Counted from the first letter of the stretch, positions 17,642 to 61,569 are shown. The stretch is 64,000 nt of DNA from Candidatus Saccharimonadales bacterium (GCA_035479795.1 DATIII010000002.1:84034-148033); one strand, 5' to 3'. Program-made: numbers and translations. The notes: a model not told the origin generated them from the sequence alone.

Positions 17642-17670
17642 TTGCACAAGTACCGCTTCAGGAGTATTAT
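17642..17670 (+). promoter_or_regulatory. Sigma70-like promoter (TTGCAC-17nt-TATTAT) for island-1 gene A
   Basis: The hexamers and spacing were read directly. A ~30-nt leader carrying GGAGGAG ends at the ATG at 17702. Confidence 0.5.
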
Positions 17671-17701
17671 CACGGGGCTTACAAGTGCACCTGGAGGAGA
17701 A

Positions 17702-18046
17702 ATGAAACAGTTGGAAGTTTGCCGCGTCTACGTTGACGCGCATGTAGCTGGCTGCCAGGTCGTCGTCAACCCCGGAGAAGAGAACCTGAAGGTCCTTGAG
17801 CCGAGCAGACTCTTCCCCATTGGGCTCAACCGCTACTTGGCATGGGAAACCGCTGATCACGACGACGACACCGGAGAAGCGTGGGTCTACGTATTTCACC
17901 ACCGCTACGACCATGATGGCGACGAGTGGCTGGTCCATGAAAACTCTCTCCGCGTCGTCGATGAGGATGCCAAGTTCCAGCTCTTCTACGACTGGGACCC
18001 TGGCTGCGCGATCAGCGAGAATCCAAACTGGAAGCGCCTTAGCTGA
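17702..18046 (+). CDS. Hypothetical small acidic protein, paralog A (GC-rich module 1)
   Basis: GGAGGAG RBS. 115 aa. Shares the CRV and LPxxxLPxGxNxYxAW segments with the next ORF. The plus strand is preferred over the antisense ORFs because of the RBS and the more protein-like composition. Confidence 0.55.
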   Translation: MKQLEVCRVYVDAHVAGCQVVVNPGEENLKVLEPSRLFPIGLNRYLAWETADHDDDTGEAWVYVFHHRYDHDGDEWLVHENSLRVVDEDAKFQLFYDWDPGCAISENPNWKRLS

Positions 18047-18073
18047 CATTCATACAACCAAGAAAGGACCGTC

Positions 18074-18433
18074 TTGCGCTATTTCTGGCTTTGCAGGGTA
18101 AGCGTGCTCTTCGACCCGCCCAAGGGCATTGGCCCGCACGTGATGTTTGCAACCGGACAGCCGTCCGACTACGACGACGGTCCGGCCCTCCCCGAGCGCT
18201 CCATCCTGCCGGTCGGAGGAGACAACTACGTGGCCTGGGACTTCAACGACCTGGGCGCCGGCCTGGTACTGTTCAATCTGGTACTTGCGGCCGGTCAAGA
18301 CCCGCGAGTACATGCCGGGCCGATCGTAACCCAAGACGGTGAGTTCGAACTGGTGCTCGGCCAGCACACCCCTGTCGGCGGCCGGCAAAACTCCAACCTG
18401 CGCCGGCCCGAGTGGCGGGTTGTTGATGAATGA
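18074..18433 (+). CDS. Hypothetical small protein, paralog B (GC-rich module 1; TTG start)
   Basis: AAAGGA lies 7 nt upstream of the TTG. 119 aa, alignable with paralog A (LCRVSV.../...[12 protein letters not shown]). Confidence 0.5.
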
Positions 18434-18440
18434 CCACGCC

Positions 18441-18472
18441 CCCGCGGCCCCCCGCTGCGGGGGCCGCGGGGT
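18441..18472 (+). terminator. Very stable GC-only hairpin (13-bp perfect stem) directly after paralog B stop; U-tail-less terminator/insulator
   Basis: CCCCGCGGCCCCC cgctgc GGGGGCCGCGGGG, read directly. Confidence 0.55.
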
Positions 18473-18489
18473 TCAGCCGATCACATGGC

Positions 18490-18518
18490 TTGATAGATCT
18501 GTAATTATCTGCTATATT
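18490..18518 (+). promoter_or_regulatory. Sigma70-like promoter (TTGATA-17nt-TATATT) for rpmE, giving a near-leaderless transcript
   Basis: The -10 hexamer ends 9 nt before the rpmE ATG. Confidence 0.5.
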
Positions 18519-18527
18519 GGTTCGGTT

Positions 18528-18902
18528 ATGAAAACCGGAATTCACCCCGAATTGAAGACCACCAAAGTCCACTGCAACGGCTGCGGCACTGATTTTGAAA
18601 CGGCCGCCACTGTGGATTCTATTACCGTGGAAATTTGCTCTAACTGTCATCCGTTCTACACGGGTAAGCAGAAGCTGGTTGATACCGCTGGTCGGGTTGA
18701 GAAGTTCCGAGCTCGGGCCGAGGCCGCTTCTAAGGCTAAGTCAGCCAAAAAGGCCAAGCCAGCCAAAAATGAAGATGCCGAAGTCGTAGAAGACAACAAG
18801 CCAGCCAATGATCCGGAAATGAAAGAAATTGCCCAGGAGTTCAAGGCTGAAACAGTAGACATGCCAGCAGCTGATTCTGACGCCGAAACTACTGAATCTT
18901 AA
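18528..18902 (+). CDS. rpmE: 50S ribosomal protein L31 (Zn-binding type) with ~55-aa Lys/Ala/Glu-rich C-terminal extension
   Basis: MKTGIHPEL with CNGCG and CSNCH cysteine pairs. The ORF runs to 124 aa. Confidence 0.9.
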
Positions 18903-18956
18903 CTAATTCACAAGGAAACGCTCTGATACAATTGTCATGAGCGTTTTTTGTTACTT

Positions 18957-20003
18957 ATGGACCAAACCGAGCAAAAAATTCGAGGCGAATACGGCGAACT
19001 GCAGGCCAAGCTGGCCGATAGTTCGATTTTTGGCACACCCGAGTACGCTAAAACCGCCAAGCGCCAGGCCGAGTTGCAGCCACTGGTTGATTTATATGAC
19101 CAGCGAGCACAATTAGAGAACGATTTAGAGGCTTTGATGGACCCAGACCTGGCCGATCTAGCTGCCGTTGAGACACCGGTGCTGGAGTCTAAATTAATTG
19201 AAACACAAGAAAAGCTGCGTCTGGCCTTGGTGCCGAAAGATCCCAATGATTCAAAGGATATAATTGTGGAAATTCGGGCTGGTGCTGGTGGTGATGAATC
19301 CAGCCTGTTTGCCGGCGAGCTCTACCGTATGTATATGCGGCACGGCGAAACCAAGGGCTGGAAGGTGGAAATTGACTCTGAAAGCCCTAGCGATGTCGGC
19401 GGCTATAAAGAAATCATTTTTGAGGTTCATGGCTCTAATGTCTACGAAGACATGAAGTATGAATCTGGCGTGCATCGCGTCCAGCGGGTGCCAGCTACCG
19501 AGAGCCAAGGCCGAGTCCACACCTCCACCGTCACGGTCGCTGTACTCCCGGAAGCCGAAGAGACCGAGCTGGAGATTGCCGATGGCGATCTGCGGATTGA
19601 TGTTTTCCGTAGTGGCGGCCACGGTGGCCAGAGCGTTAACACCACCGATTCAGCAGTGCGCATTACTCACCTACCGACTGGACTCGTTGTCACCTGCCAG
19701 GATGAGAAAAGCCAACTTAAAAACAAACTCAAGGCCATGGGTGTATTGCGGGCGCGGCTACTGGCGATCAAAGCGGAGCAGGAGCAGAAAGAAAACCGCG
19801 AGGCCCGGCTGGCCCAAATTGGCTCGGGTGATCGCAGCGAAAAAATTCGCACCTACAATTTCCCCCAAGACCGCATTACCGACCACCGTATCGGCCGTAG
19901 CCAGCATGGCTTGCCCCAGTACATGGCCGGTGACATTGGCGACATGATTGAAGCGCTAAAGGCCGAGGATCTTAAGCGCAAACTCGAGACGGCAGCGGCG
20001 TGA
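18957..20003 (+). CDS. prfA: Peptide chain release factor 1
   Basis: PAT tripeptide (RF1-type) and a GGQ motif. The start is ambiguous: ATG at 18957, or an upstream TTG at 18948. Confidence 0.92.
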
Positions 20004-20803
20004 CGATAGCCGAGGCCAAGCGACACGGCGAGCAAGTATTAGGCCGGGCCGGAATTGAGAGTAAGCGCATTGATACTTCGCTGCTGCTGGAAAAAGTTAG
20101 CGGCAAAAAGCGCACTTGGCTGTTCGCCCACCTTGAGGATAATCTGGACGACGACCAAGCTAAAAAATTTATCGATCTAATAAATGAACGGTCTAAGCGG
20201 CGACCACTGGTCCACCTAACAAATGCCCGTGAATTTTATGGTCTGGATTTTTATATTAATGAGTTTGTACTGACACCAAGGGTTGAAACCGAACAGATGG
20301 TTGGATGGGCTATTAAATATGCCCCTAAAAATTCCCATCTAATCGATATAGGAACGGGATCAGGCGCCCTTGCCATTGCGATTAAGAAACACCGGCCGGA
20401 TCTAAATGTCACCGCCACCGATGTAACCGATGAGGCGTTAGCAGTCGCTAAGAAAAATGCGAAGATTCATAAAGTCGACATTAGCTTCATCAAAAGCGAT
20501 CTTTGGACCAATGTCGAAGGCAAATTTGGAACCATTGTTACCAATCTTCCATATCTAAAAGACGATGCCGACCTAATGCCAGAAGTTAAGCACGAACCAG
20601 ATATTGCGCTATTTGGCGGGGCCGACGGATTAGACATTTACCGCCGGTTCTTAGAAAAACTTCCGGATCACCTGGCCGAAAATGGCTATCTATTCACTGA
20701 ATGTGATCCCTGGCAGCAGGCAGATCTGATCGCCGAAGCCGCCAAGGCTGGCCTAAAGCCAATCGAGCAGAGTTACTTTATTTTGGGCTTTCGAAGCGTT
20801 TAA
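20000..20803 (+). CDS. prmC: Release factor glutamine N5-methyltransferase PrmC/HemK
   Basis: SAM-binding DIGTGSGA and an NLPY catalytic motif. Overlaps prfA by 4 nt. Confidence 0.85.
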
Positions 20804-21927
20804 GACCTAGGCGCTTCTTCCAGCGCGACATCGACTGATTTAGACTGTCCGTCCCGCAGGTACTCAATCTTCACTTTGTCCCCTACCTTATGCTGGGAAA
20901 TTAGCAGGCTCAAACTGTGGGTGGCGTCCAGAGTTTGGCCACCAATCTTAGTGATAATGTCGCCTTCTTTAAGACCAGACTTGGCCGCCGGGCTACCCGG
21001 CACGACTGCCAGATTCTGGTTGTCGCCCGTAATATAACCACCTTGGGTAACCGGCAAGTTATTAGAGGCGGCAAATTCTTTGGTAATCGGAATGTAACGC
21101 ACGCCCAAATATGGCTTGGTGATCTTACCGGCTTTTTGCACCTGGGCCAGCTCAATTTTTGCCTGATTAATTGGTATAGCAAAGCCAATGTTTTGGGCGT
21201 CACCAGCCACGGCCGTATTGATACCAATTACCTTGCCCTCAAGGTTCACCAACGGCCCCCCAGAGTTACCGGGATTAATCGCCGCATCGGTCTGGAAAAG
21301 ATTCTGTAACTGTTCCTCACTGCCCCCCGTTTGGTCCCCAGCCGTGACTGGCCGGCCAAGGCCGGAAATGATGCCTTCGGTGACAGTATTCTGAAACTGA
21401 CCCAAGGCATTACCGATTGCCACCACCTTATTGCCCACCGCCACACTCGATGAATCGCCCAGCTCAGCTGCCTTGAGGCCGTGAGCATCAACTTTGATGA
21501 ATGCCAGATCGTTCTGCGCGTCGGTGGCAATCACCTTGGCGTTTTTATACCGTTTACCATCCGAAGTATAGACATCGAGCTCACTGGCGCCGTCGATCAC
21601 GTGATTATTGGTTAAAATCAAGCCGTCGCTGCCCACTATTATGCCGGTTCCAGCACCCTTGGTAGTTTGCGACTGGCCAAAGAAAGAAAACCCAGTCGAC
21701 TGCGAGGTGATGGAAACCACACTGGGTGAAACCTTTTTGGCTACATCGACTGCTGCTGAGTTTTCCTGCAGCACGATGGCTTGCTTACTGACCGGAATTA
21801 AAGCCGGTAAATAACGCACTACCACATAACTACCGGCTGCCCCACCGAGTAAACCGACCACCAAGGTTAAAGTCACAATCCGTCTAACGAGATTATATGG
21901 CAATTGATTGTGTTCTTCGTGTTCCAT
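20800..21927 (-). CDS. htrA: HtrA/DegP-family serine protease with PDZ domain
   Basis: GNSGGPLVN catalytic-Ser motif in a trypsin-like domain, followed by a PDZ domain. Start set at MEHEEHN, with AAGGAGA upstream. Confidence 0.88.
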   Translation of the reverse strand: MEHEEHNQLPYNLVRRIVTLTLVVGLLGGAAGSYVVVRYLPALIPVSKQAIVLQENSAAVDVAKKVSPSVVSITSQSTGFSFFGQSQTTKGAGTGIIVGSDGLILTNNHVIDGASELDVYTSDGKRYKNAKVIATDAQNDLAFIKVDAHGLKAAELGDSSSVAVGNKVVAIGNALGQFQNTVTEGIISGLGRPVTAGDQTGGSEEQLQNLFQTDAAINPGNSGGPLVNLEGKVIGINTAVAGDAQNIGFAIPINQAKIELAQVQKAGKITKPYLGVRYIPITKEFAASNNLPVTQGGYITGDNQNLAVVPGSPAAKSGLKEGDIITKIGGQTLDATHSLSLLISQHKVGDKVKIEYLRDGQSKSVDVALEEAPRS

Positions 21928-21935
21928 AATTCTCC

Positions 21936-24202: not shown

Positions 24203-24241
24203 TGACCTTAAGTATAACCATTTTCCAGGTGGGCGTAAAGG

Positions 24242-24270
24242 TTGCGGCGCTCCCTTTCGGCCTCTATACT
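24242..24270 (+). promoter_or_regulatory. Sigma70-like promoter (TTGCGG-17nt-TATACT) for lepB, giving a leaderless mRNA
   Basis: The -10 hexamer ends 4 nt before the ATG at 24275. Confidence 0.45.
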
Positions 24271-24274
24271 TGAT

Positions 24275-24943: not shown

Positions 24944-24946
24944 CTC

Positions 24947-26589: not shown

Positions 26590-26591
26590 TA

Positions 26592-27412: not shown

Positions 27413-28719
27413 CCTGACGCCTCGTCAGGATAAAACCGATGGTTGCCACCAGCATCATGCAGAGAGCAAGGACTGAGTGCGGCCAGTCTCCAGTCGGCGC
27501 TAGCTTTTTCGCCGTGGAATCGGTGGATGTTGACGGGGTCGGTGTCGAACTCACAGCAGCGGCGGGGTTCATCGTCAAGGTTAACGCGAGGGTTGGACTG
27601 GCATTACCGGCGGCGTCAGTAGCAACGATCGAAAGATTATGTTGGCCATTAGGAATGTCTTGATCCGGAGTGGCGGACCATGCACCGGTGGCGTCAACCG
27701 TAGCCGTAAGCTTGATATTCTCCGGCGAAACCATAATTGCTACCTTTGAACCCGCTTCGGCCTTACCGCTGAAGACCGGCCGATTAGCACCGCTAATGCT
27801 GGCTGTACTTCCTGAAACTTTATTATCTCCCACCTTTCCAACCGTTGGGGCGGAAGGAGCCAAGCTATCCACACTAAAGGCGGCGGCTTTATCGTCGCCA
27901 ACCGTTAGCCAATCGCCAGCTTTATCACCCTTGGTGACGCGAATCTGCCAGTGATAGCTCCCATCGACAATACCGGCCTGGGTGACTGACACATCCAAAT
28001 CGTGGCCGCCGGCCTTCACTGCGGCTCCCTTGGTAGTGGCCTCCCCGGTAAATGCTTGGCCCATCGGCCGGACTTCGATTTCCGGTACGACTGCGCCGGT
28101 GTTGGCTGATGTCGCCAGAGTGGCATGGAATGATAGGTCATGATCTTTGGCAGCGCCCCCTAGACTAATCTCGCCACTCGAAGCTACCAAGCGGGGATCT
28201 TTCAGAGTGCCAACTTCAATTTCCTTGGGGATAGGGCTCTCGGGCGACTGGGCTGATTGATCGCTATTGCGCTGAGTGAAATACCACCAAGCGCCACCAC
28301 CGAGCAAAAGTACAATTATGGCGGCCAGGATAATCCAGCGACCATTGCCTCCTCTTTTTGGTGGCACAATGGGAACCTCAGGAGCGGGCTTTGGCTCGGG
28401 AGTGACAGAAGAGCCGTTTTTCTCGGGATCATGGTCCTTGTCATCCTTCACACTGCCCGAATCCGCTAAGACCGTCGGTCCGGCGGCGGGAGCTGGACCG
28501 GCCCCAGCGGGCTCGGCCGGCTGGGGCGCTGGTGCAGCCGCAGCCGTGGTCTTGGCGACGGATACATAATCGGAAGCCAGCCGGGGCGAAGCCGCCGGTC
28601 CGGCGGTTATTGAACCGGCACCGTAAGAGCCTCCAACCTTTTGGTTAGAGCCTGAATTATGTAATAAGTCCATCCTGGGATTATTGGTCGGGTTGCTCCC
28701 CGCCGATATTGGATCCATC
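27399..28719 (-). CDS. Cell-surface protein with C-terminal LAPTG sorting signal (candidate sortase substrate)
   Basis: C-terminus is KKLAPTG, then a hydrophobic segment, then RRQGALR. Start set at MDPIS, with GGGTGAGG upstream. An internal transmembrane helix sits near residue 130. Confidence 0.75.
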
Positions 28720-33966: not shown

Positions 33967-34000
33967 AAGGGCTGGGTACGCTTTCGCGCACCCAGCCCTT
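33967..34000 (-). terminator. Terminator hairpin downstream of nrdJ (11-bp perfect stem)
   Basis: AAGGGCTGGGT ...12 nt... ACCCAGCCCTT, read directly. Confidence 0.65.
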
Positions 34001-34011
34001 GGTTTGCGGTA

Positions 34012-36858
34012 TTAGCCGCAGCCGGTGTTGTTACCACAGCTGTTGCAGGTGTAGCACGAGCCCGTCCGCTGCATCATGCCGCCGCACTGGCTGCAGGCCG
34101 GACCCAGCTCCAGGCCGGGCAGGCTGTGGTTGCCATTGCTGGGGGCGGCCGTGATGGACGAACCCATCTCGGCGGTCTCGTTGGCCTTGACCTCGGACGG
34201 CACCTCGGAGGGCGCCACCTCGGTCACCTTCATCTCGCCGGCCGCACCATCGACGAGGGTGGTCTCGGCCAGCTCGGGGATCTGAATACCCAGAGCCTCC
34301 ATGTGCTCGGGCTCGTGCCGCATGTAACGCGACGCCAGCCAGCGCATGATGTAGTCAGGCATGGACTTGGCGAACGGGATCTCCGGGTTGCGGGTAATCC
34401 CCTCTGGCTCGAACTTCATGTGCGAGAACTTGTACACCAGCGTCTCGAGCGGCACCCCGTACTGGAGCGCGATCGAAATCGCCGTGGCAAAGGAGTTCAT
34501 CATCCCCCGCAAGGTCGATCCCTCCTTGCCAATGTCGGTGAGGAAGATCTCCCCAACGGTGCCGTCCTCGTACAAGCCGGCGGTGATGTACCACTCGAAC
34601 CCGGCCACCTCGGCCTTGTGCGTCAGCGACTGCCGCTCCTTGGGCATGCGGTTGCGACGCGGGCCGGCCTCAGCGATGGCCTTGGCCACGATGGCCTCGA
34701 CATCGCTGGGGGTGTAGGCGGCCTTGGCCGCCTGCTTCTTGCCCCCGACGGTGACGTAGGCCTGGGCGGCCTTGGAGCCGTCGACGTAGAGTGCCAGGGC
34801 CTTGACCCCGTGCTTCCACGCCTGGATGTAGGCGTCCATCACGTCCTCGGCGGTGGCCTTCGCAGGGAGGTTGACCGTCTTGGAAATGGCGCCAGAGATG
34901 AAGGGCTGAACCGACCCCATCATCTTGATGTGCCCCATGTGGCTGATCGCCCGCGCCCCAACCGCAACGTCGAACACCGGGAGATGGTCGTCGGACAGGT
35001 GCGGCGCATCGGACAGGTCACCCTTGGCATCGAGGTGCTCGAGGATCTCGTCGATGTGATTCGACTTGTACCCCAAGCTCTCCAGAGCCGGCCGAACCGA
35101 CTGATTGACCATCTTGATCCGGCCGCCGCCCACTAGGTCCTTGAGCTTCACCAAGGAGAAGTCGGGCTCGACGCCGGTGGTGTCGCAATCCATCAGGAAC
35201 GAGATCGTCCCCGTCGGCGCTAGCACCGTGGCCTGGGCGTTGCGGTAGCCATTGATCTCGCCCTCGGCGACCGCTGCTTCCCAGTCCTCCTGGGCTGCAG
35301 CCAGCAGCATGGAGTCCGAGCAGTGCTCGATCTCGCGGCTGGCGTCGCGATGCATGCGCATCACGTTGTTGTGTGGCTCGCGGTTCTCCTCGTAGCGGTC
35401 GTAGGGGCCGACAGCCTCAGCGAACCGCGCCGAGTTGAGGTAGGCCCGTCCGGTCATCAGCGCCGTGATAGCGGCAGCCAGCCCGCGACCCTCGTCGGAG
35501 TCATAGGGCAGGCCGCTCTGCATCAGGTAGGCGCCAAGATCGGCGTAGCCGAGACCAAGCTGCCGGAAAGCCCGTGCGTTGTCCCCGATCTTCTCGGTGG
35601 GATAGCTGGACGGGCCAACGATGATCTCCTGCGCCAGGTAGACGATGTCGACGACGTGGCGCATGGTTGCGACGTCGAACGTGCCATCCGGAAGCCGAAA
35701 CTTGGTCAGACGCAGCGAGGCCAGGTTGCAAGCCGAATCGTCGACATGCATGTACTCGCTGCACGGGTTCGAGGCGTTGATGCGCCCCGAGTTCGGGCAG
35801 GTGTGCCACTGGTTGATGATGGTGTCGAACTGAATGCCGGGGTCAGCGCAGCGCCAGGCTGCGTCGGCCACCGCCACCATCAGCTCGCGAGCCGTCATCG
35901 GCTGACCCGTCTCCGGATCGACCACGTCATGCTGTGAGCCGTCGATCCGCCACCGGACTTGCCAGGGCGCCGTCTCCCCACCCTCCACCAGCGACATGAA
36001 GTCGTCGGTGACGCGGATGGAGTTGTTGGCATTCTGGAAGGGCACCCGCCAGCGATCCTTGCCGTCGACGGACACGTCGTAGCCGAGCGCGTCCAGCTCC
36101 TTGGCAAAGTCCTCAGCATCCGCCTTGCAGCGGGCAAAATGGAGGATGTCCGGATGGTCGACCTCTAGGACAACCATCTTGGCGGCCCGGCGGGTCTTGC
36201 CACCGGACTTGATGACCCCGGCCCAGGCGTCAGCGCCGAGCATGAAGGACACTGGGCCCGAAGCGGTGCCGCCCTTACTGAGCGGCTCCATCGACCCACG
36301 GATCTTCGACAGGTTGATGCCGGAACCCGACCCACCTCGGAAGATCTTCCCCTCCTGGGTGTTCCAGAAGAGGATGTCGTCCATCTCGTCCTCTGTTGAG
36401 AGGATGAAGCAAGCCGAGCACTGCGGCTGCTCCTCGAATCCGACGTTGAACCAGACAGGGCTGTTGAAGGCCGCATACTGGTGGAGCAGGATGTGGGTCA
36501 ACTCGTCGCGAAAGGCGTTGCCGTCTTCCTCGGTCGCGAAGTAACCCAGCTCCTGACCCCAAGCGGCGATCGTGCCGGCAACGCGGCCGATCATCTGCTT
36601 GACGCTGTTCTCGCGCGCCGGCTTATCCAGCTGGCCGCGGAAGTACTTCTGCGACACAATGTTGGTCGCGGTCAAGCTCCAGGTCTTGGGGAACTCGACA
36701 TTCTTCTGCTTGAAGCTGGGGTTGTCAGGATCGCCGATCAGCGCCGTCCGCTTCTCCCACTCGACAGAGTCGAAGGGGTCGGCACCAGGCGTCGTGAAAA
36801 CGCGGCGGACCACCAGACCAGAGTCCTGATCCAGGCGCTGCTGCATGGTTCCAGCCAT
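34012..36858 (-). CDS. nrdJ: Class II (adenosylcobalamin-dependent) ribonucleotide reductase
   Basis: 948 aa with a class II RNR core and a C-terminal Cys-rich tail (CSQCGG...CYTCNSCG). Clearly GC-richer than its neighbours, with long antisense ORFs. Confidence 0.92.
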   Translation of the reverse strand: MAGTMQQRLDQDSGLVVRRVFTTPGADPFDSVEWEKRTALIGDPDNPSFKQKNVEFPKTWSLTATNIVSQKYFRGQLDKPARENSVKQMIGRVAGTIAAWGQELGYFATEEDGNAFRDELTHILLHQYAAFNSPVWFNVGFEEQPQCSACFILSTEDEMDDILFWNTQEGKIFRGGSGSGINLSKIRGSMEPLSKGGTASGPVSFMLGADAWAGVIKSGGKTRRAAKMVVLEVDHPDILHFARCKADAEDFAKELDALGYDVSVDGKDRWRVPFQNANNSIRVTDDFMSLVEGGETAPWQVRWRIDGSQHDVVDPETGQPMTARELMVAVADAAWRCADPGIQFDTIINQWHTCPNSGRINASNPCSEYMHVDDSACNLASLRLTKFRLPDGTFDVATMRHVVDIVYLAQEIIVGPSSYPTEKIGDNARAFRQLGLGYADLGAYLMQSGLPYDSDEGRGLAAAITALMTGRAYLNSARFAEAVGPYDRYEENREPHNNVMRMHRDASREIEHCSDSMLLAAAQEDWEAAVAEGEINGYRNAQATVLAPTGTISFLMDCDTTGVEPDFSLVKLKDLVGGGRIKMVNQSVRPALESLGYKSNHIDEILEHLDAKGDLSDAPHLSDDHLPVFDVAVGARAISHMGHIKMMGSVQPFISGAISKTVNLPAKATAEDVMDAYIQAWKHGVKALALYVDGSKAAQAYVTVGGKKQAAKAAYTPSDVEAIVAKAIAEAGPRRNRMPKERQSLTHKAEVAGFEWYITAGLYEDGTVGEIFLTDIGKEGSTLRGMMNSFATAISIALQYGVPLETLVYKFSHMKFEPEGITRNPEIPFAKSMPDYIMRWLASRYMRHEPEHMEALGIQIPELAETTLVDGAAGEMKVTEVAPSEVPSEVKANETAEMGSSITAAPSNGNHSLPGLELGPACSQCGGMMQRTGSCYTCNSCGNNTGCG

Positions 36859-37070
36859 GTTGATTCTCCTTCCTGCCGCTTTTCGGGCAGATCGTTTGAA
36901 ATGCCCTCGGCAGTCAGACTTGTTGACTTACGTTTGAGAGGACAGGCGAGGTCCTTAAGCACCCTCACCTAAGGTGCCTCGAGTGTCATCTCATGTAAGT
37001 GTTTTTCAACGTTCGTTTGGGTTTAGTACCCATCTGGCCGCTCGAACCACCTCGAGAAGCCGGACGGGGA

Positions 37071-37553
37071 TTAAACCTGCCCGAGACTGCGGGATTTTAG
37101 CTTGGCTACCTCCGCTTCAAAGCTTTCAATGTCGGCAAATGAGCGATACACACTGGCAAACCGTACGTAAGCCACATCGTCCAAGCCCATCAACTTGGTC
37201 ATTACAATCTCGCCGACTTTGGCCGCTGGAATCTCCGCCTCGCCGATGGCCCGGACCTCTCGCTCGATTTCATCAATGACTTCCTCGATCCGGCCAATCG
37301 AAATCGGGCGCTTTTCAGTAGCCCGGTACAGGCCACCCGCCACCTTTTGACGATTAAACGGCTCACGGCGGCCGTCCTTTTTAACTATGGCCACACTCGG
37401 CCGTTCCAGCCGCTCATAGGTTGTAAAGCGCAGACCACACTTAAGACACTGCCGACGCCGGCGAATTGATGCCCCCTCTTCTAAGTCACGTGACTCGATG
37501 ACCTTAGAGTCTAAATATTCACACTCGTGACACTTCACGTGCTTCCCCCACAT
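37071..37553 (-). CDS. nrdR: Transcriptional repressor NrdR (Zn-ribbon + ATP-cone)
   Basis: VKCHECEYLDSKVIESR Zn ribbon and SIRRRRQC. The start could be the ATG at 37553 or a GTG 15 nt downstream. Confidence 0.9.
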   Translation of the reverse strand: MWGKHVKCHECEYLDSKVIESRDLEEGASIRRRRQCLKCGLRFTTYERLERPSVAIVKKDGRREPFNRQKVAGGLYRATEKRPISIGRIEEVIDEIEREVRAIGEAEIPAAKVGEIVMTKLMGLDDVAYVRFASVYRSFADIESFEAEVAKLKSRSLGQV

Positions 37554-37569
37554 TTAGCGTAACCTTTAT

Positions 37570-37629
37570 ACACTATAACGCTAGGCTTACGGATGCCGTC
37601 AAGGCGCTTTTGCACACAATATCTGTAGG
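37570..37629 (-). promoter_or_regulatory. nrdR promoter region with two NrdR-box-like half-site-conserved elements (ACACTATAA..., ACACAATAT...)
   Basis: Plus-strand 37570-37585 and 37614-37629 read against the NrdR-box consensus acaCwAtATaTwGtgt. The left halves are good and the right halves are degenerate. The elements overlap a CTTGAC...TTATAG promoter-like sequence on the minus strand. Confidence 0.35.
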
Positions 37630-43830: not shown

Positions 43831-44118
43831 TCATGCAGCGAAGGGGGCGGACCGAAGCAGTTCGCAGGCTTCGTCGGCATGACCAGGAGCGGCGATGGCT
43901 CGCAGAACGGCGCTTTCGTCGGTAGAGATGGCGCCACGGATGTGACGCAGGCCGTGGTTACAAACCTGGTTCACCAGCTCCAGCTGGACCTTGTCGACCG
44001 TTTCCAGACGAGCCGTGTCGAGCGGGTTGACGATGCGCAGATCACGGACGATCGGGCGCTGATTGGTGCTTCCAGACATTGACCTTTTCCTTCCATGAAT
44101 CGGTCGTTTGTGGGACAC
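43831..44118 (-). CDS. Hypothetical 95-aa protein (GC-rich module 2; own promoter region and RBS GGAAGGAAAAGG)
   Basis: ORF with a strong RBS. High GC. I do not recognise a family. Confidence 0.45.
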   Translation of the reverse strand: MSHKRPIHGRKRSMSGSTNQRPIVRDLRIVNPLDTARLETVDKVQLELVNQVCNHGLRHIRGAISTDESAVLRAIAAPGHADEACELLRSAPFAA

Positions 44119-44184
44119 CTAAATTATCTTATAGCATAAGCGTTTTGTCGAGTTGTTTTCTCGAATAAATTATGTCGATGTAAC

Positions 44185-44219
44185 AAAAAGGCCCCAGCCG
44201 CCGAATGGCGGCCAGAGCC
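44185..44219 (-). terminator. Terminator after module-2 gene pair (13-bp stem with G-U pairs + U5)
   Basis: Minus-strand RNA forms GGCUCUGGCCGCC AUUC GGCGGCUGGGGCC followed by UUUUUG. Confidence 0.55.
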
Positions 44220-44240
44220 GATTTGGTGTGAGATTTTCAG

Positions 44241-44594
44241 CTAGGTGATGATCGCCCGCTGCCGGTTCGGCGCCCGCCGGATGACCGGCGGCTGGCGATC
44301 GGGCTGTGACATCTTCGGCGGTGTCACCGGCGCCTGCTCGCGGATGAACCGCCAGACGCACCTTATGGCAACGTAGAACACCGGATCCTTCGCCCTCCGG
44401 CAGCCCCGGTCGCCGTAGTTCAGCACCCGAATCTTCAGCCGATCGAAGTCACGATCTGCCACCAGCTGGCTGGCATCATGCGAGTCCTCGCCGAAGTGCT
44501 TGGCCAGGAAGATCATGCCCACACGGGCCAGATGCTCCTGACGGCGCAGTCGAGTGGTCAACTCGAGGCTGTAAGCCGGCTTGGACGCCTTCAC
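44241..44594 (-). CDS. Hypothetical 117-aa protein (module 2, GTG start overlapping upstream stop as GTGA)
   Basis: Translationally coupled to the upstream 78-aa ORF. Contains an RLRRQEH segment. Family unknown. Confidence 0.5.
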   Translation of the reverse strand: MKASKPAYSLELTTRLRRQEHLARVGMIFLAKHFGEDSHDASQLVADRDFDRLKIRVLNYGDRGCRRAKDPVFYVAIRCVWRFIREQAPVTPPKMSQPDRQPPVIRRAPNRQRAIIT

Positions 44595-44827
44595 GCCGCC
44601 ACCAGCTTCTTGGCTCGCCGGGCCTCCGCCTCCTGACGGTGGCGCCGGTCCCTGGCATCGCTGGCCTTCCGGCGAAACATGCGCTTGAGCGCCATCTTGT
44701 TGGGCAGGCAGCGGCTGTTCTGGATGTGGCGCAGGGCATTGTCCAGGTTCGCCGTATCTGCGAGCTGACTCTCAGTCAGGCCCAAGGCGGTGAGGATGCC
44801 ATCGAACTGCTCGTTAATTTTTGCCAT
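44591..44827 (-). CDS. Hypothetical 78-aa protein with basic C-terminal tail (module 2, first gene)
   Basis: GAGGAGAG RBS. Helical and acidic N-terminal half, Arg/Lys-rich C-terminus. Confidence 0.5.
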   Translation of the reverse strand: MAKINEQFDGILTALGLTESQLADTANLDNALRHIQNSRCLPNKMALKRMFRRKASDARDRRHRQEAEARRAKKLVAA

Positions 44828-44886: not shown

Positions 44887-44914
44887 TTATGGCCATAAAT
44901 GACAATTATGTCAA
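44887..44914 (-). promoter_or_regulatory. Sigma70-like promoter (TTGACA-16nt-CATAAT) driving module-2 operon
   Basis: Read on the minus strand. A ~55-nt leader runs to the RBS. Confidence 0.45.
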
Positions 44915-44920
44915 TATGAA

Positions 44921-54353: not shown

Positions 54354-54467
54354 CGCGTTAGAAACCCGATGAGTGCCGGTGATTGCATTTAACTATTAAC
54401 TCACTCATAAACTGCTCCTCAGTTTAGCAGGCAGGAGTCGACAGGTGCAAACTGTTACAATCTAGAC

Positions 54468-56408: not shown

Positions 56409-56414
56409 GTTGAG

Positions 56415-56996: not shown

Positions 56997-57011
56997 GCTA
57001 CAATTGTCGAT

Positions 57012-57836
57012 ATGAAGCAAAAGGTTGTCTTTTTTGGTAATGAAAAGCTGGCGACGGGCATACCGGAGCCGCGGCCGTTGATCCGTGAGGCGGTGAAACA
57101 GGCTGGTTTTGAAATCGAAGCGGTGGTTACCGGGCTAGAAGTCCCTGATCATGAAGCCGAGCTGGCCGTGCTGTCTGCTCATGGGCAGATCCTGCGCCAG
57201 GATGTTCTCCAGCAATTCCCACTAGGCATTGTAAATATCCATCCTTCGCTACTACCGGTTTACCGTGGGCCCACGCCAATTGAGCAAGCCATTTTAGACG
57301 GCTCTGTCAAAACCGGAGTTTCAATCATGAAGATTACTCACGAAATGGATGCCGGTCCAATTTATAAACAGAAGACTGTTCATCTTACGGGTAATGAGTC
57401 CAAGGCCAAGTTGGCAGAGACCCTGCAAAAACTCGGCGCGGAAATGCTGGCCGAAGCTTTGCCGGCGATTGCCAATGGCAGCTTAAAGCCACGTCAGCAA
57501 TCTCACGTCGACCGTGACGCCTCCTACACCAAGCTAATCAAGAAGTCCGATGGAATTATCGATTGGCATAAGCCGGCTGACGTCATAGAGCGCGAAATCC
57601 GAGCCTACCTCGGCTGGCCTGGCAGCCGAACGACATTGTTTAATAAAGATGTGATTATTACTGCGGCACACGTGGTACCGGCAAACTTTGGCGAGGAGCC
57701 GGGATATGTCGAGCCTGTCGAAAACACCATACTCATGATTGAGACCGCCAACGGCCGCATTTGCATCGACCGCTTGAAGCCCGCTGGGAAAAAAGAAATG
57801 ACCGCAGCAGAATTCCTGCGCGGCCTTAAAAACTAA
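57012..57836 (+). CDS. fmt: Methionyl-tRNA formyltransferase (short)
   Basis: The formyltransferase N-terminal domain shows HPSLLPVYRGPTPIEQAI. 274 aa. Confidence 0.85.
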   Translation: MKQKVVFFGNEKLATGIPEPRPLIREAVKQAGFEIEAVVTGLEVPDHEAELAVLSAHGQILRQDVLQQFPLGIVNIHPSLLPVYRGPTPIEQAILDGSVKTGVSIMKITHEMDAGPIYKQKTVHLTGNESKAKLAETLQKLGAEMLAEALPAIANGSLKPRQQSHVDRDASYTKLIKKSDGIIDWHKPADVIEREIRAYLGWPGSRTTLFNKDVIITAAHVVPANFGEEPGYVEPVENTILMIETANGRICIDRLKPAGKKEMTAAEFLRGLKN

Positions 57837-57919
57837 CCTTCTACACCTGTAATTATAGCACAACCAAGCCAAAATTTGTAGTCTTGTTCTCGGTCCCGCG
57901 CCGGCGTAGGCTGTAACTT

Positions 57920-59671
57920 ATGCAAAACGTCTTCAAGGTCCTGGGTTACGTCAAACACATTTGGCGACAGATCGCCTTGGTCGCAGCCATCAGTATTTTC
58001 ACCACTGCCCTGTCAGCTATCCAGCCATATGGCTACAAGTTGATCGTCGACGAGCTGGTTAAAACCGCCAGCAATCATCGAACCGATTCAAAGTTAATTT
58101 GGCTGGCCATCGGTGCCCTGCTAGTGCTCCGGGTGGTTTCTTCGATTGCCAATTATTTTTCCAGCCTACTTGGCAACCGCGTCTATTCTCAAGTATTCAT
58201 TAGCCTCCGCGATAGTGTTTTTCGGCGATTAACTACCCTTTCGCTCGATTATTTTGAAAAGAATCGGACTGGCGAGATCATGCAGCGCGCTAGTGGCAAT
58301 GTGGCCGAATTGGCGAACTGGGTTTACTCCACCGCCGACGGCTTTTTAAGCATGAATCTAACCATTATATTTGCCTTGGTTCTAATATTCGTTGTCGATT
58401 GGCGGGCCGGCATTGTCATGAGCATTGCCGTGGCCTTATTTATGGCCCAGCAGGTCCCCACCTTGCGACAAACCCGGCCGATGGGTAAAAAAAGCCGGGA
58501 AGAAATGGAGCGGGCCGGCGGTTATTTGCAGGAAACCATCACCCATATTCATACCGTGCGTAGCTTTGGCGGCGAACCGGGCGCCATTGCCAACCACCTT
58601 GAGGCCATTAAATCCTGGCGCCAGCTGCAATACGATCGGTTGGTTATATTACAGCGCAGCATTCTCTTCCGGCAGCTGACAAATAGTGTGGCCATCATCA
58701 TTACCTTTGGCATTATTACCCTAGGCGCCCTGAATGGCACTCACACGGCTGGCGACATTCTGCTGGTCTCACTCTACCTCCAGCAGATCACCCAAAACAT
58801 CTGGTCACTCGGCCGGTTTATCGTCCAGACCAATGAAATCGACATTACCGCCGAGCGGATCGTGGGCATGCTGGAGATCAAACCGACAGTCGTGGATGGC
58901 CCGGACGCGCGGGAATTGACCGAACTAAAAACGATTATGTTCAAGGACGTTAGCTTCCACTACCCAGGCAAGCGGCGTAAGGTACTGCAAAATATTAATT
59001 TCCAGATTGATCCCGGGCAGAGTCTGGCTCTGGTCGGGCCCAGCGGTACCGGCAAGACCACCATTACCAAGCTGCTGCTGCGATTCTATGAGCCGACGGA
59101 CGGTGAAATTTTAATCAACGATGAACCGATTAGAAACTTCACCCAGGATTCAATTCGCGAAAAGATGGGTGTGGTTATGCAGGACGTAGCCCTCTTTAAT
59201 GACACCGTGGAAGCCAATCTTAAATTAGCCCAGCCCGAGGCCACTCACGCCGACGTCATCCGGGCTGCCGAGCAGGCCCACGCCAATGTGTTTATCGAAA
59301 AGCTGCCAGAAAAATACAAAGCCCTCGTTGGTGAACGAGGGGTTAAGCTTTCCGGCGGTGAAAAACAACGGGTGGCGATTGCCCGGGCCATTTTAAAGAA
59401 TCCTCAACTGATTATTCTCGATGAGGCTACTAGCGCCTTGGATAGCGAGTCTGAGCATCACGTTCAAGCCGGCTTAAGCGAGTTAATGGAGGGTCGCTCT
59501 TCCGTCATCATCGCTCATCGACTCTCCACAGTTATGAAAGCCGATCAAATATTAGTGCTAAAAGATAATAAAATAGTCGAACGCGGTACTCACACCGATC
59601 TCGCCGACAAATCTGGCGGGCTGTATGCCAAGCTATTTAAGCTCCAGACCGAAGGGTTTGTTAAAGCTTAG
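57920..59671 (+). CDS. ABC transporter, fused permease/ATPase (type I exporter, MsbA-like)
   Basis: Six-helix transmembrane domain, then GPSGTGKTT, LSGGEKQRVAIARA and ILDEATSALD motifs. Confidence 0.88.
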   Translation: MQNVFKVLGYVKHIWRQIALVAAISIFTTALSAIQPYGYKLIVDELVKTASNHRTDSKLIWLAIGALLVLRVVSSIANYFSSLLGNRVYSQVFISLRDSVFRRLTTLSLDYFEKNRTGEIMQRASGNVAELANWVYSTADGFLSMNLTIIFALVLIFVVDWRAGIVMSIAVALFMAQQVPTLRQTRPMGKKSREEMERAGGYLQETITHIHTVRSFGGEPGAIANHLEAIKSWRQLQYDRLVILQRSILFRQLTNSVAIIITFGIITLGALNGTHTAGDILLVSLYLQQITQNIWSLGRFIVQTNEIDITAERIVGMLEIKPTVVDGPDARELTELKTIMFKDVSFHYPGKRRKVLQNINFQIDPGQSLALVGPSGTGKTTITKLLLRFYEPTDGEILINDEPIRNFTQDSIREKMGVVMQDVALFNDTVEANLKLAQPEATHADVIRAAEQAHANVFIEKLPEKYKALVGERGVKLSGGEKQRVAIARAILKNPQLIILDEATSALDSESEHHVQAGLSELMEGRSSVIIAHRLSTVMKADQILVLKDNKIVERGTHTDLADKSGGLYAKLFKLQTEGFVKA

Positions 59672-59702
59672 TCGCGTACTCAAAGAAACTTAAATTGGGA
59701 TA

Positions 59703-59735
59703 CTGCCCCAGGAACCTCCTTGGTTCCTGGGGCAG
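59703..59735. terminator. 14-bp perfect-stem hairpin between convergent ABC exporter and module-3 operon
   Basis: CTGCCCCAGGAACC tcctt GGTTCCTGGGGCAG, read directly. No U-run on the plus strand and a weak one on the minus strand. Confidence 0.6.
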
Positions 59736-59759
59736 CTGGATACAACTCCCGTTGGGTGG

Positions 59760-60380
59760 CTAGCCGCCGAGCTTCTGCAGCTTGGCCAGGAAGCCCGACT
59801 TGGGCTTCGGGGCCGGGTCGCCTGCCGGCCGGGACCGGATGGGTTCCGGCTCGGGCTCGACTGCCCTCCGGGGCCGAGCCGCAGGGGGCGGCTCCGTCGT
59901 CCGGATGTCGTCGAGGATCAGGCGCTGCCGCGGGCCGCGAAGGCGGTCTGCGATTTCAGCATCCTCCCGAGCGCGACGACTGCGTTCTGCCTCAAGCGAG
60001 GCGTGCTGGTCCTCCAACCTAATGAGCTCAGCTTCGAGCTCATTGAAGGTCCGTGTCGCAGCGATAGCCGCATTCTCGGCGGCCGCCACCTCTTCCCGCT
60101 TTGAGAGAATCCTCTCGCGCAGGCTTGGAGCCGGAGCGGGATCAGCCGCCGGGGCGGCCGGCGTGACGAACGCGAAATCCGCTCCGGGGAAAGCCGGAGC
60201 TGCAGCCACGGGAGCCGGCCCAGGTGTCGGTGCGGCAGCCGGAGCGGGCTCCGGCTGGGCGGCCACAGGGGCCGCAGCGGGTGCCGAAGCCCCCGAGTCG
60301 TTGTCGGGCACAGGGATGGAAACGGCAGCGTCTGCTGTCGCCTCGGCCTCGGCCACGATCGCTTCGATGTCGCTCGACAT
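59760..60380 (-). CDS. Hypothetical Ala/Pro-rich protein with central coiled coil (module 3, second gene)
   Basis: AGGAGGG RBS 4 nt upstream of the ATG. 206 aa. Low-complexity AP-rich N-terminal half, then a REEVAAAENA...LEAELIRLEDQHASLEAE coiled coil. Confidence 0.5.
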   Translation of the reverse strand: MSSDIEAIVAEAEATADAAVSIPVPDNDSGASAPAAAPVAAQPEPAPAAAPTPGPAPVAAAPAFPGADFAFVTPAAPAADPAPAPSLRERILSKREEVAAAENAAIAATRTFNELEAELIRLEDQHASLEAERSRRAREDAEIADRLRGPRQRLILDDIRTTEPPPAARPRRAVEPEPEPIRSRPAGDPAPKPKSGFLAKLQKLGG

Positions 60381-60388
60381 CAGCCCTC

Positions 60389-61318
60389 CTAGTCGTTGAC
60401 CAGCAGGCCGAGTTCAGCCCGCTTCTCGTTTTTCAGGATCTCCGCCCTGGCCTTGATTTCCCTGGCCTTGGCGGGGTACTTCGCGATCTGGCCGGCAATG
60501 GCCAGATCGAACTCCTTGACCCACTCCACGAACGCCTCCTTGCGGGCGACGTGCTTGGGATGGGTCTCGAGGTGCTGAGCCACGAGCCGCACCAGAAGGT
60601 ACGGCACATCCGCGATGCCCGACACCAGGTTCTCCCAGATGTCGGAACGAGAGTCGAAGAACGCATCTTCGCTCTCAAACCGCGGATCGCCGCAGATGAT
60701 GCACCTCGACGAGGCGCTCGCGGCAAACGACAACTGGCCCATGAGCCGGATGCGTGCGTTGAGGCAATCCCGGCAAAAACGCGGGAAAGGCGACGTGCGC
60801 ACATCCTTGCGCTGACCGCGCCTGCGAACATCCCGAGGATTGGCGATCACGTTGTGATCGCACACCCCGAGGTATTCGTAGTAGCCCTGCTGGCTCTCCT
60901 GGGCCATCGAGACCTTGGGATCGGGCGGGTTCCAGGTCGGCAGCGCCGCCTGATCCGTCTCCACCTGCTGATCGATGTCCATGAGAAGCGTCAGGTCCTG
61001 GCGAACGATCGCCTCCAGCTCGGGGTCGATCTCGGTCGAGCCGTTGACCTTCCCCTGCCGGCGAAGTGCCGGATAGGCAGTGGCGAAGTACACGGGCTTG
61101 ATGCCCCTGAGCCCTTGCGCCACGAAGCCACCCAGCAGCTTGTCGATTGTGACCTTCCGAGAAGCCTCGGACTCCAGCTTCGCGAACTCTTCGGGAGAGA
61201 TCTTGGAGCCCTCCTTCAAGCCCGAGCGCTCGAGAATGTCAGCCATCTGCTCGATGGTCAGCCCCACATCAGGGGCCACCTTGCGAGCCAGACGGTTTCC
61301 GGTTGCCGTGGTCGGCAT
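60389..61318 (-). CDS. Hypothetical 310-aa protein with Cys cluster (CDHN...CRDC...CIIC; putative zinc ribbon) (module 3, first gene)
   Basis: Start at MPTTATGN, with GGAGG 6 nt upstream. The Cys spacing was read directly. I do not recognise a family. Confidence 0.5.
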   Translation of the reverse strand: MPTTATGNRLARKVAPDVGLTIEQMADILERSGLKEGSKISPEEFAKLESEASRKVTIDKLLGGFVAQGLRGIKPVYFATAYPALRRQGKVNGSTEIDPELEAIVRQDLTLLMDIDQQVETDQAALPTWNPPDPKVSMAQESQQGYYEYLGVCDHNVIANPRDVRRRGQRKDVRTSPFPRFCRDCLNARIRLMGQLSFAASASSRCIICGDPRFESEDAFFDSRSDIWENLVSGIADVPYLLVRLVAQHLETHPKHVARKEAFVEWVKEFDLAIAGQIAKYPAKAREIKARAEILKNEKRAELGLLVND

Positions 61319-61540
61319 TGAACCTCCAGGTTGGAGAGAGATTCGCCAGTCGTAGGTCGGCGACACCTTCTAGGGATCGCCTTCCGGCGACGGGTTACTA
61401 CTCGTCTCTTAGAGGAGACGACCGGTTACAGCATGTTTCGGGTGTGTATCCAAGGCCTTTTAAGGGCCTTTGGGTACGAAACTTTATCTAGATTTCAAAC
61501 TCCAACAGATGAGAAATGGGTTCCTCAAGTGCAATGGAGT

Positions 61541-61569
61541 ATATTAGCATAATTACTTTAAAAAGTCAA
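61541..61569 (-). promoter_or_regulatory. Sigma70-like promoter (TTGACT-17nt-TAATAT) 10 nt downstream of rbfA stop, oriented toward module 3
   Basis: Read on the minus strand. It would give a ~215-nt structured leader before the ATG at 61318. Confidence 0.4.

Follow-up and report, generated by a model that had tools for sequence, protein, structure and literature searches.

Four GC-rich islands in a Saccharimonadales chromosome include a Solirubrobacterales-type nrdJ and a clade-restricted gene cassette

Four GC-rich islands in a Saccharimonadales contig

The 64,000-nucleotide stretch analysed here (the window) comes from a Candidatus Saccharimonadales bacterium and contains four GC-rich islands (islands 1 to 4, or M1 to M4), of which island 2 carries the ribonucleotide reductase (RNR) gene nrdJ, island 4 a pair of genes that we call X and Y, and islands 1 and 3 small orphan genes. 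With refined limits they lie at 17702-18473 (M1; 61.4% GC, z = 3.4), 33967-36858 (M2; 64.1%, z = 7.7), 43831-44827 (M3; 60.6%, z = 3.4) and 59702-61318 (M4; 65.7%, z = 6.7), and the GC content of each exceeds the maximum over all equal-size windows of the backbone. Pooled, they have 63.7% GC, against 53.1% for the whole window and 52.0% once they are removed, so that the four discrete high-GC modules in a backbone of about 50% GC reported in a preliminary description of this DNA are confirmed (61-66% versus 52%). That description had proposed a sliding GC plot as a check, and this separates the islands only in part: at 1-kb resolution M2 and M4 stand out as strong peaks (~65% GC, at 34-37 kb and 59.5-61.5 kb), whereas M1 and M3, which are small (0.8-1.0 kb each), give weak peaks near 18 kb and 44.5 kb that are poorly separated from other peaks of the backbone. 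The feature that distinguishes M1 and M3 from the backbone is not the plain 1-kb plot but the GC content of third codon positions (GC3), which by codon-position analysis is 0.69-0.87 in island genes versus 0.47-0.66 in about 30 backbone genes. By open reading frame (ORF), GC3 is 0.69 at 17642-18046(+), 0.75 at 18074-18433(+), 0.87 at 34012-36858(-), 0.84 at 44241-44594(-), 0.82 at 44591-44827(-), 0.74 at 59760-60380(-) and 0.81 at 60389-61366(-). Atypical composition or codon usage, one of the properties by which genomic islands are recognised, is therefore common to all four.

GC3 periodicity and two independent sets of gene calls agree on one coding strand per island; the ORFs previously seen on both strands arise artefactually from the high GC, which makes stop codons scarce and leaves long ORFs open on the opposite strand. 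The proteins had also been described as rich in Ala, Pro and Arg, which is true of some of them: the sole Ala/Pro-rich product is the 206-aa protein of M4 (24% Ala, 15% Pro) and the M3 proteins are Arg-rich (15%), but NrdJ, the 309-aa protein of M4 and the M1 proteins are of ordinary composition. Milder GC peaks (58-59%) occur at 8951-9450 and 27900-28700 inside ordinary backbone genes with GC3 of 0.55-0.57, namely a 677-aa ORF and a gene for a 461-aa protein with Big_6/Big_13 domains whose GC at second codon positions is 0.55; we attribute these peaks to amino-acid composition and not to foreign or atypical codon usage.

The supposition that the genome is of Saccharibacteria type is borne out, as it is a Saccharimonadales metagenome-assembled genome (MAG). 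When its isoleucyl-tRNA synthetase (IleRS) was scanned against GTDB species representatives, the best matches were Saccharibacteria/Saccharimonadia MAGs at only 69-74% identity, and we therefore regard it as a lineage without a close sequenced relative. The window is part of a 162-kb contig (GCA_964594805.1), the longer of two NCBI contigs on which NrdJ is recorded; its proteins also appear under the locus tags of a third-party-annotation MAG (VLF21_), one of them on a second NCBI contig, of 156 kb. Logan assemblies made from single runs (SRR9179559, SRR9179560 and SRR9179562) again contain islands 1, 3 and 4 complete with their two flanks: M1 lies between rpsB and rpmE-prfA, M3 between the Band-7 side and HIT/S21, and, in the assemblies of three runs, M4 between rbfA/infB and a series of ABC transporter, fmt, def and priA genes. 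One Logan contig extends from M3 over ftsZ and nrdR and takes in the first 362 codons of nrdJ. These independent assemblies reproduce the 5′ junction of island 2 and, for islands 1, 3 and 4, the junctions on either side, and a chimeric assembly, the possibility that had been singled out for checking, is accordingly rejected on the strength of junctions common to the Logan assemblies and two MAG versions.

A Solirubrobacterales-type nrdJ behind a native nrdR

The gene of island 2, nrdJ (34012-36858, minus strand), encodes a complete class II ribonucleoside-diphosphate reductase of 948 aa whose activity is predicted to depend on adenosylcobalamin. The protein matches Pfam PF02867 (E = 1.9e-128, profile positions 1-523 of 523), PF08471 and PF12637, as well as the NCBIfam models NF005122 (1280 bits against a cutoff of 859, residues 6-947) and TIGR02504 (545 bits against a cutoff of 400). 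Its top 119 non-self matches are 67-69% identical to it and all the named ones are from Solirubrobacterales (Solirubrobacteraceae, Baekduia, Conexibacter); identity is 48-61% to the NrdJ of other Saccharimonadia, 49% to those of Streptomyces and Nonomuraea, and 43% to the best phage NrdJ. A neighbour-joining tree (100 bootstraps, rooted on a Geobacillus phage NrdJ) unites the Solirubrobacterales, the window and one further Saccharimonadia locus, L007, in 100/100 replicates, with the Solirubrobacterales monophyletic to the exclusion of the window and L007 in 96/100 and the latter two as sisters in 0/100. The same tree recovers a ‘native’ clade of L016, L027, L077 and L018 (96/100) and places the L022 protein with Streptomyces and Nonomuraea.

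The correspondence with Solirubrobacterales NrdJ (Conexibacter sp. SYSU D00693 and a Baekduia MAG; NF005122/PRK06556) extends over the full length of the protein (948 versus 937-954 aa), over the PF08471, PF02867 and TSCPD domains and over a C-terminal Cys-rich tail, CxxCGGMMQRTGSCYTCxSCGxNTGCG, that is common to both. In Conexibacter and Baekduia, whose genomes have about 75% GC, nrdJ has a GC3 of 0.985 and is in each case followed by a GC-rich hairpin without a U-tail, as it is in the window. The window gene differs in branching outside the sampled Solirubrobacterales crown and in lying behind a native nrdR in a patescibacterial chromosome of 52% GC; in neither of the two Solirubrobacterales loci read does the gene upstream of nrdJ have a recorded NrdR domain. 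Its GC3 of 0.87 also falls below 0.985, about 28% of the way to the backbone value of 0.58, and is thus a partly ameliorated high-GC signature. The GC shift sets in at the nrdJ start codon and ends just beyond the hairpin, and the 212-nt nrdR-nrdJ intergenic leader (36859-37070, minus strand), which has a backbone-like composition, marks the 5′ limit of the foreign segment.

Island 2 is a xenologous replacement by a Solirubrobacterales-type nrdJ, in which the actinobacterial gene together with its 3′ hairpin would have displaced the resident RNR gene in situ. It is the island that has its closest homologues in a distant taxon, and here the actinobacterial source proposed earlier stands, although the nearest sequences are those of soil Thermoleophilia and not of Actinomyces, Schaalia or Propionibacterium, the genera that had been suggested. 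The enzyme would supply deoxyribonucleoside triphosphates under NrdR control, with cobalamin that would have to come from outside the cell. We found no report in the literature of an actinobacterial nrdJ in Saccharibacteria.

The flanking regulator gene, nrdR (37071-37553, minus strand; TIGR00244, E = 1e-55), lies outside the island, has a GC3 of 0.60 and encodes a protein that shares 49-69% identity with the NrdR encoded at this position in other Saccharimonadia. The gene order FtsZ-NrdR-[RNR]-orf84-YggT-IleRS-FtsW is conserved across Saccharimonadia, while the content of the RNR slot varies. In L016, L027 and L077 it holds an NrdJ at backbone GC that is 47-49% identical to the window protein; in L007 (~60% identical), L018, L022 and L025/L030 (only 24-26%) it holds RNRs of differing lineages whose GC is above that of their own backbones; L009, L058, L031, L032, L044 and L076 have nrdR alone with no adjoining RNR; and many other Saccharimonadia loci have neither gene. 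The syntenic site of island 2 therefore exists in relatives and is either empty or filled by a ‘native’ NrdJ, a Streptomyces-like NrdJ or an unrelated RNR. At least four RNR lineages are found between nrdR and orf84/IleRS (in L007, L016, L018, L022, L025, L027, L030 and L077), and this variety, combined with the orphan nrdR genes, suggests that the RNR at this one fixed locus has repeatedly been replaced or lost.

The leader between nrdR and nrdJ shares a -35-like box and a hairpin close to the ribosome-binding site (RBS) with other Saccharimonadia RNR leaders. Comparison of the window leader with those of L007 (5923-6260), L018 (6308-6560), L022 (5110-5500), L025 (6696-6880) and L030 (4932-5210) showed, whichever RNR lineage follows, a -35-like xTTGA(C/A)AA box and a long hairpin with an apex of G(A/U)GGGUGC or GGAGGG; three of the leaders (window, L018 and L022) also have a CUGCC-loop-GGCAGGAAGGAG hairpin that overlaps the RBS. 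These leaders may contain a conserved cis-regulatory element. A known RNA or riboswitch near nrdJ was considered and dropped: the leader has no Rfam match at gathering thresholds or at E <= 10, and MAFFT/RNAalifold on the six RNR leaders gave no convincing consensus fold. No site in the window fits the canonical NrdR-box pattern ACACWATATATWGTGT with 3 or fewer mismatches. By eye, we noticed paired palindromes like ACGCTAtAtaTAGCG upstream of nrdR at about 37560-37610 (minus strand), and likewise upstream of nrdR in L007, L016, L022, L025, L030 and L077; their resemblance to a variant NrdR box would suggest an autoregulated nrdR(-RNR) operon. In L010, the usual slot of which lacks nrdR and nrdJ, a 70-aa GC-rich ORF (14226-14438, plus strand) ends in ...MCSTCGTKMRPAGSCYIC, resembling the C-terminal Cys-rich tail of NrdJ, and may be an NrdJ remnant or a stand-alone zinc ribbon.

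A fast-evolving cassette of Saccharimonadia-like genomes

Island 4 consists of genes X (60389-61318, minus strand; 309 aa, GC3 0.81-0.83 depending on the start codon used) and Y (59760-60380, minus strand; the called gene of the 206-aa protein). X, a Zn-ribbon/helical protein, contains a conserved Cys/His cluster (CGH...CxxC...CxxC) together with the motif SRxDIWENL; the C-terminal half of Y, judged from its sequence, reads as a coiled coil. A word-indexed search with X returned only the protein itself; HMMER, run exhaustively over 1.84 billion representatives, brought up 17 relatives that are 20-46% identical to it. All six of the genomic contexts that could be read are Saccharimonadia-like, and in every relative read X is followed by a very divergent Ala/Pro-rich gene. 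L092 (P0128) has the cassette at the same site as the window, in the order infB-rbfA-X-Y, with a cassette GC3 of 0.84-0.87 between flanks of ~0.55. The other relatives with readable context carry it in the arrangement lysS-serS-hpf-secA...X-Y-TM...prfB-ftsE-ftsX, where TM is a 500-aa membrane protein, with cassette and flanking GC3 of 0.69-0.80 and 0.40-0.60 in L093/L094 (P0137, annotated Candidatus Saccharimonadales), 0.78-0.82 and 0.45-0.56 in L095 (P0131), 0.75-0.80 and 0.57-0.66 in L096 (P0138), and 0.69-0.77 and 0.43-0.59 in L097/L098 (P0144, an 872-kb contig); the small lysS-serS ORFs of L095 and L096 are left out of these flanking ranges. In all genomes read, the cassette thus has a GC3 about 0.1-0.3 above the backbone.

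The cassette proteins have no Pfam match and diverge rapidly. Between the window and L092, identity is 75% for IF-2, 47% for RbfA and 46% for X, and the four-fold sites of X are 0.44 identical versus 0.38 expected from composition, so its synonymous sites are close to saturation. Among the relatives, X is 23-46%, Y ~26% and TM 31-54% identical versus 66-81% for SecA, so that X, Y and TM evolve much faster than SecA. Island 4 is one copy of a rapidly evolving cassette that has so far turned up in Saccharimonadia-like genomes only; its homologues do not lie in a distant taxon, and the cassette is present at the syntenic infB-rbfA site of L092. Because high GC persists in this syntenic, clade-restricted cassette over such large divergence, a recent actinobacterial import is disfavoured, and we infer that the family has had its high GC for a long time. 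Exchange within the clade, GC-biased gene conversion or selection could maintain it.

The AF2 model of X is of good quality by its scores (predicted local distance difference test, pLDDT, 87.6; predicted template modelling score, pTM, 0.77), and a fold search with it gave no PDB or BFVD match. The N-terminal ~60 residues of X are weakly like the N-domain of IF-2 (profile against PDB, E = 0.04; top Foldseek match 4b44, E = 2.3), and X stands directly after infB-rbfA in both the window and L092. In L095 (698-1084), L096 (2329-2856) and L097 (94-519), the interval between lysS and serS encodes a small conserved protein that contains Cys and is unannotated. The GC3 of its ORF is raised in L095 (0.75) and slightly so in L096 (0.66), whereas in L097 (0.59) it lies at the upper end of the backbone range; this may be another GC-enriched gene that keeps its position.

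Small orphan genes in two intergenic slots

Island 1 comprises two called genes on the plus strand that encode orphan proteins of 114 aa (gene 1, 17702-18046, GC3 0.69, called in the NCBI and Logan assemblies, with an RBS, GGAGGAG, ahead of its ATG) and 119 aa (gene 2, 18074-18433, GC3 0.75). The two are weak paralogues (23% identity, E = 3e-4). Gene 1 forms a singleton cluster and has no Pfam, PHROG, NCBIfam or PADLOC match, and gene 2 no family match; an AF2 model of the gene 1 product, computed from an alignment of the two paralogues, was unusable (pLDDT 43). The gap between the divergent rpsB and rpmE genes is 990 bp in the window versus 210-450 bp in ten related contigs from the candidate phyla radiation (CPR), and M1 is therefore an insertion. 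The metagenome scan with RpsB behind this comparison returned mostly generic bacteria (best identity 58%), yet also 15 contigs with the rpsB/rpmE arrangement.

Island 3 comprises three called orphan genes on the minus strand. Gene 1 (44591-44827, 78 aa, GC3 0.82, a singleton cluster) overlaps by its stop the start of gene 2 (GTGA), the two forming an operon; gene 2 (44241-44594, 117 aa, GC3 0.84) encodes an Arg-rich protein with no family, phage, plasmid or IMG/VR relative; and gene 3 (43831-44079, 82 aa) has a milder GC elevation (62.6% GC, GC3 0.70; as a longer 95-aa ORF at 43831-44118, 60% GC and GC3 0.66). The promoter-like regions between the genes, including one belonging to gene 3, are AT-rich. 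In relatives the HIT/Band-7 slot is variable and occupied by locally GC-rich, unrelated genes, often one for a ~220-aa protein with a transmembrane (TM) helix and an Ala/Pro-rich composition.

The five proteins of island 1 and of the island 3 genes are singletons or near-singletons in a 15-billion-protein collection, with no significant family, phage, plasmid or IMG/VR match, and the Saccharimonadia loci examined hold no relatives of the island 1 and island 3 proteins. Both islands would be lineage-specific insertions of two or three small orphan genes into variable intergenic slots, rpsB/rpmE in one case and HIT/Band-7 in the other.

The ~220-aa slot protein is encoded on the opposite strand between Band-7/orf88 and HIT in L006, L010, L014, L017, L019, L048 and L081, and has an N-terminal TM helix (…NLKTTILAS…LLN..QF…), an Ala/Pro/Thr-rich tail and a GC3 of 0.64-0.83; the window slot lacks it and has the three unrelated small genes instead. 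A 12-nt direct repeat (AATTATGTCGAT / AATTATGTCAAT) at 44168-44179 and 44904-44915 brackets the operon of the 78- and 117-aa proteins together with its terminator. By a rough estimate, about 2 such pairs are expected by chance in that stretch, and on the coding strand both copies contain promoter-like TTGACA/TCGACA-TAATT boxes.

Hairpins at the island ends

A hairpin scan of the window found only four sites with a folding free energy (ΔG) <= -25 kcal/mol, and each lies directly 3′ of the last gene in the main operon of an island. The island 1 hairpin (18438-18473) begins 5 nt past the stop codon of gene 2 and has an almost wholly G-C stem of 13-14 bp (ΔG ~-35 kcal/mol), followed by TTCAGCCG; that of island 2 (33967-34000, minus strand) has a 15-bp stem with a GAAA loop (ΔG -31.5 kcal/mol), followed by CTTACGTT; and that of island 4 (59702-59736; 15-bp stem, ΔG -31.6 kcal/mol), with ATCCCAAT as its tail, sits where gene Y and the ABC transporter gene converge, between their stops, and has a U-run on neither strand. 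None of these three tails is a U-run. The island 3 hairpin (44190-44219, minus strand; ΔG -25.9 kcal/mol) is followed by TTTTTGTT, a U-run, and has the form of a classic intrinsic terminator. The canonical stem is thus present at 4/4 island ends and the canonical U-run at island 3 only, and the hairpins lacking U-tails that were ascribed to all modules are a property of islands 1, 2 and 4. The strong island hairpins probably serve as terminators or as 3′ stabilisers of mRNA.

Hairpin terminators without U-tracts (‘I-shaped’) have been described for high-GC Actinobacteria. The hairpins of islands 1, 2 and 4 and those behind Solirubrobacterales nrdJ resemble them in their long, G+C-rich, perfect or near-perfect stems right after stop codons and in the missing U-run, whereas the island 3 hairpin has a normal U-tail. 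Strong GC-rich U-less hairpins of the same type also end the Saccharimonadia-restricted X-Y(-TM) cassettes of L092, L093, L096 and L097, and therefore they are not diagnostic of an actinobacterial source.

Mobility, phage and defence signals, and islands in related genomes

The island ORFs contain no integrase or transposase domains. No tRNA gene that could serve as a target and no Rfam family was found in the window. Direct repeats of att type at the island borders were sought and none was found beyond chance, so that of the mobility hallmarks of genomic islands (integrase, tRNA, repeats) there is only the chance-level 12-nt pair at the island 3 operon. A phage or plasmid origin is likewise unsupported: PHROGs gave only chance-level matches (best E = 0.008), tblastn against 50,697 phage (INPHARED) and 72,556 plasmid (PLSDB) records gave no match at E <= 1, and neither IMG/VR scans nor a BFVD fold search gave a match. 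The islands had been proposed to carry defence or anti-defence genes, but PADLOC returned 0 families for seven island proteins at E <= 0.1, nothing reached significance as such a system in PADLOC, PHROG, Pfam or NCBIfam, and NrdJ is an enzyme of nucleotide metabolism.

Islands were counted in other genomes as segments of >=500 bp that lie >=8 GC points over the local median. By this rule 585 kb of Saccharimonadia loci have 0.75 islands per 10 kb (the window has 0.78), and 897 kb of other loci, both CPR and non-CPR, have 0.32-0.33, which makes islands about 2.3 times commoner in Saccharimonadia and counts against the interpretation in the preliminary description. Among island ORFs sampled in the relatives, 8/10 had no Pfam match at E <= 0.001, one had a sub-threshold helix-turn-helix and one was a methionine aminopeptidase. 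GC-rich islands of mostly unannotated genes may thus be a trait of the class and not an oddity of this contig, as these counts suggest.

Discussion

The account that we favour, with moderate confidence, is that all four islands truly belong to a single Saccharimonadales chromosome and do not share a common origin: island 2 is xenologous, island 4 is a clade cassette, and islands 1 and 3 are insertions. Several points weigh against it or narrow it. The window NrdJ is sister to the sampled Solirubrobacterales and not nested inside them, and the direction of the nrdJ transfer therefore rests on composition and not on topology; the tree itself is distance-based, has few outgroups and includes Solirubrobacterales sequences picked as the best matches of the query. 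Genomic context was readable for only 6/17 relatives of X, and repeated import of island 4 from an unsampled high-GC donor pool is formally conceivable. The label ‘orphan’ reflects searches of family libraries, tblastn against phages and plasmids, scans of IMG/VR and look-ups of clusters, and the loci used for island frequency were gathered for other purposes and are not a designed sample.

A rather unlikely alternative, but the one that survives best, is that islands 1, 3 and 4 were exchanged within Patescibacteria, for example by natural transformation and recombination through conserved flanks, from donors among higher-GC Saccharimonadia, with NrdJ a separate actinobacterial import. In its favour, Saccharimonadia loci span 41-63% GC (30-63% among the relatives), conserved genes flank the variable slots, and in aquifer Patescibacteria 83% of the detected transfers came from other Patescibacteria, with Actinomycetota rare donors (PMC12455944). 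X identities moreover do not follow those of SecA and SerRS closely, X being for example 40% identical between L093 and L095 and 26% between L095 and L096 while SecA is 78-81% throughout. Yet the cassette is above its own backbone GC in 7/7 genomes, which would need a one-way flow from high-GC lineages; no donor-recipient pair of high identity is seen (the best X identity is 46%); and the island 1 and 3 proteins have relatives in none of the Saccharimonadia loci examined.

The preliminary description had suggested for all four islands a single high-GC donor class, which would be an actinobacterial host passing genes for host interaction, defence or anti-defence to its symbiont. This model, in which terminators of actinobacterial style would have come along with the genes, we consider quite improbable. 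It would account for the raised GC3 (0.69-0.87) in all four islands and for the four strongest hairpins of the window at their ends, three of them U-less like those behind Solirubrobacterales nrdJ; the NrdJ island is demonstrably nearest to actinobacterial genes, and the orphans could be donor genes that have diverged past recognition. The host-to-symbiont reading holds for nrdJ only, with a donor affinity that is Solirubrobacterales-like, and is contradicted for island 4, whose family has been found only in Saccharimonadia-like contexts (once at the same site) and is GC-rich in six other genomes despite near-saturated synonymous sites, and for which the search of 1.84 billion representatives recovered no actinobacterial homologue. 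Native high-GC genes had been named in advance as evidence that would count against a common donor, and this family supplies them. The searches that we ran gave no defence, phage or plasmid signal, and the GC enrichment is confined to coding sequence, with AT-rich promoter regions in island 3 and a backbone-like nrdJ leader. Surveys also show little transfer from hosts to Saccharibacteria, including no strong signal in the cultivated TM7x from its Actinomyces host (PMC7427843; noted too in PMC8406219), alongside the rarity of Actinomycetota as donors (PMC12455944).

We give practically no credence to the view that the islands are assembly or binning artefacts, with actinobacterial fragments mis-joined into a Saccharimonadales contig, which could draw on their atypical composition and on the best NrdJ matches being from an abundant soil actinobacterial order, because Saccharimonadia housekeeping genes stand on both sides of each island within one 162-kb contig, the junctions are identical in three single-run assemblies and two deposited MAG versions, NrdJ is <=69% identical to any actinobacterial sequence with an intermediate GC3, and homologous GC-rich cassettes occupy the same places in relatives.

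The islands resemble the compositional islands and singly transferred genes of Patescibacteria (PMC12455944) and the acquired arginine deiminase operon of mammalian Saccharibacteria (PMC8764695) in being small atypical accessory blocks in streamlined, syntenic genomes. They differ in lacking integrase, tRNA and flanking repeats and in having a GC above the backbone, and island 4 keeps both its position and its composition across diverged genomes, a pattern not expected from recent transfer. RNR genes have a reputation for being transferred between domains (Lundin et al. 2010, PMC3019208), and the exchange of an essential RNR across phyla, with several lineages in close relatives, is seen here too; what differs is that the replacements recur in one fixed slot beside a retained regulator and leader in a reduced, epibiont-type genome, and that no phage intermediate is evident, the best phage NrdJ being 43% identical. 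The nrdJ case is a further instance of well-known RNR transfer, and what stands apart from it is the lasting GC enrichment of fast-evolving, clade-restricted cassettes. The nrdR-RNR slot, refilled several times with regulator and leader retained, provides a natural example of in-situ xenologous displacement in a minimal genome.

The hosts of environmental Saccharibacteria are, to our knowledge, largely not known. A weaker corollary of the Solirubrobacterales-like nrdJ is that it would mark Thermoleophilia as hosts or close neighbours of this soil lineage; a Thermoleophilia-like xenologue of an essential enzyme is a lead to hosts or neighbours and not proof of a host relationship.

A broader possibility, which we put forward tentatively, is that environmental Saccharimonadia keep clade-restricted, very fast-evolving ‘dark’ genes at about 10-30 GC3 points above the genome, with GC-rich U-less hairpins following; the X-Y(-TM) cassette would be the clearest case. 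If so, a GC3 elevation that persists near synonymous saturation would reflect a locus-specific force and not unameliorated foreign DNA, one candidate being GC-biased gene conversion at hot spots of recombination that natural transformation feeds, the other selection acting on translation or on the structure of mRNA. Calls of horizontal gene transfer from GC alone are limited in CPR genomes, at least one GC-rich island here being a conserved clade-restricted family, and if a process other than horizontal transfer maintains such islands, composition-based predictors would systematically over-call transfer in this group.

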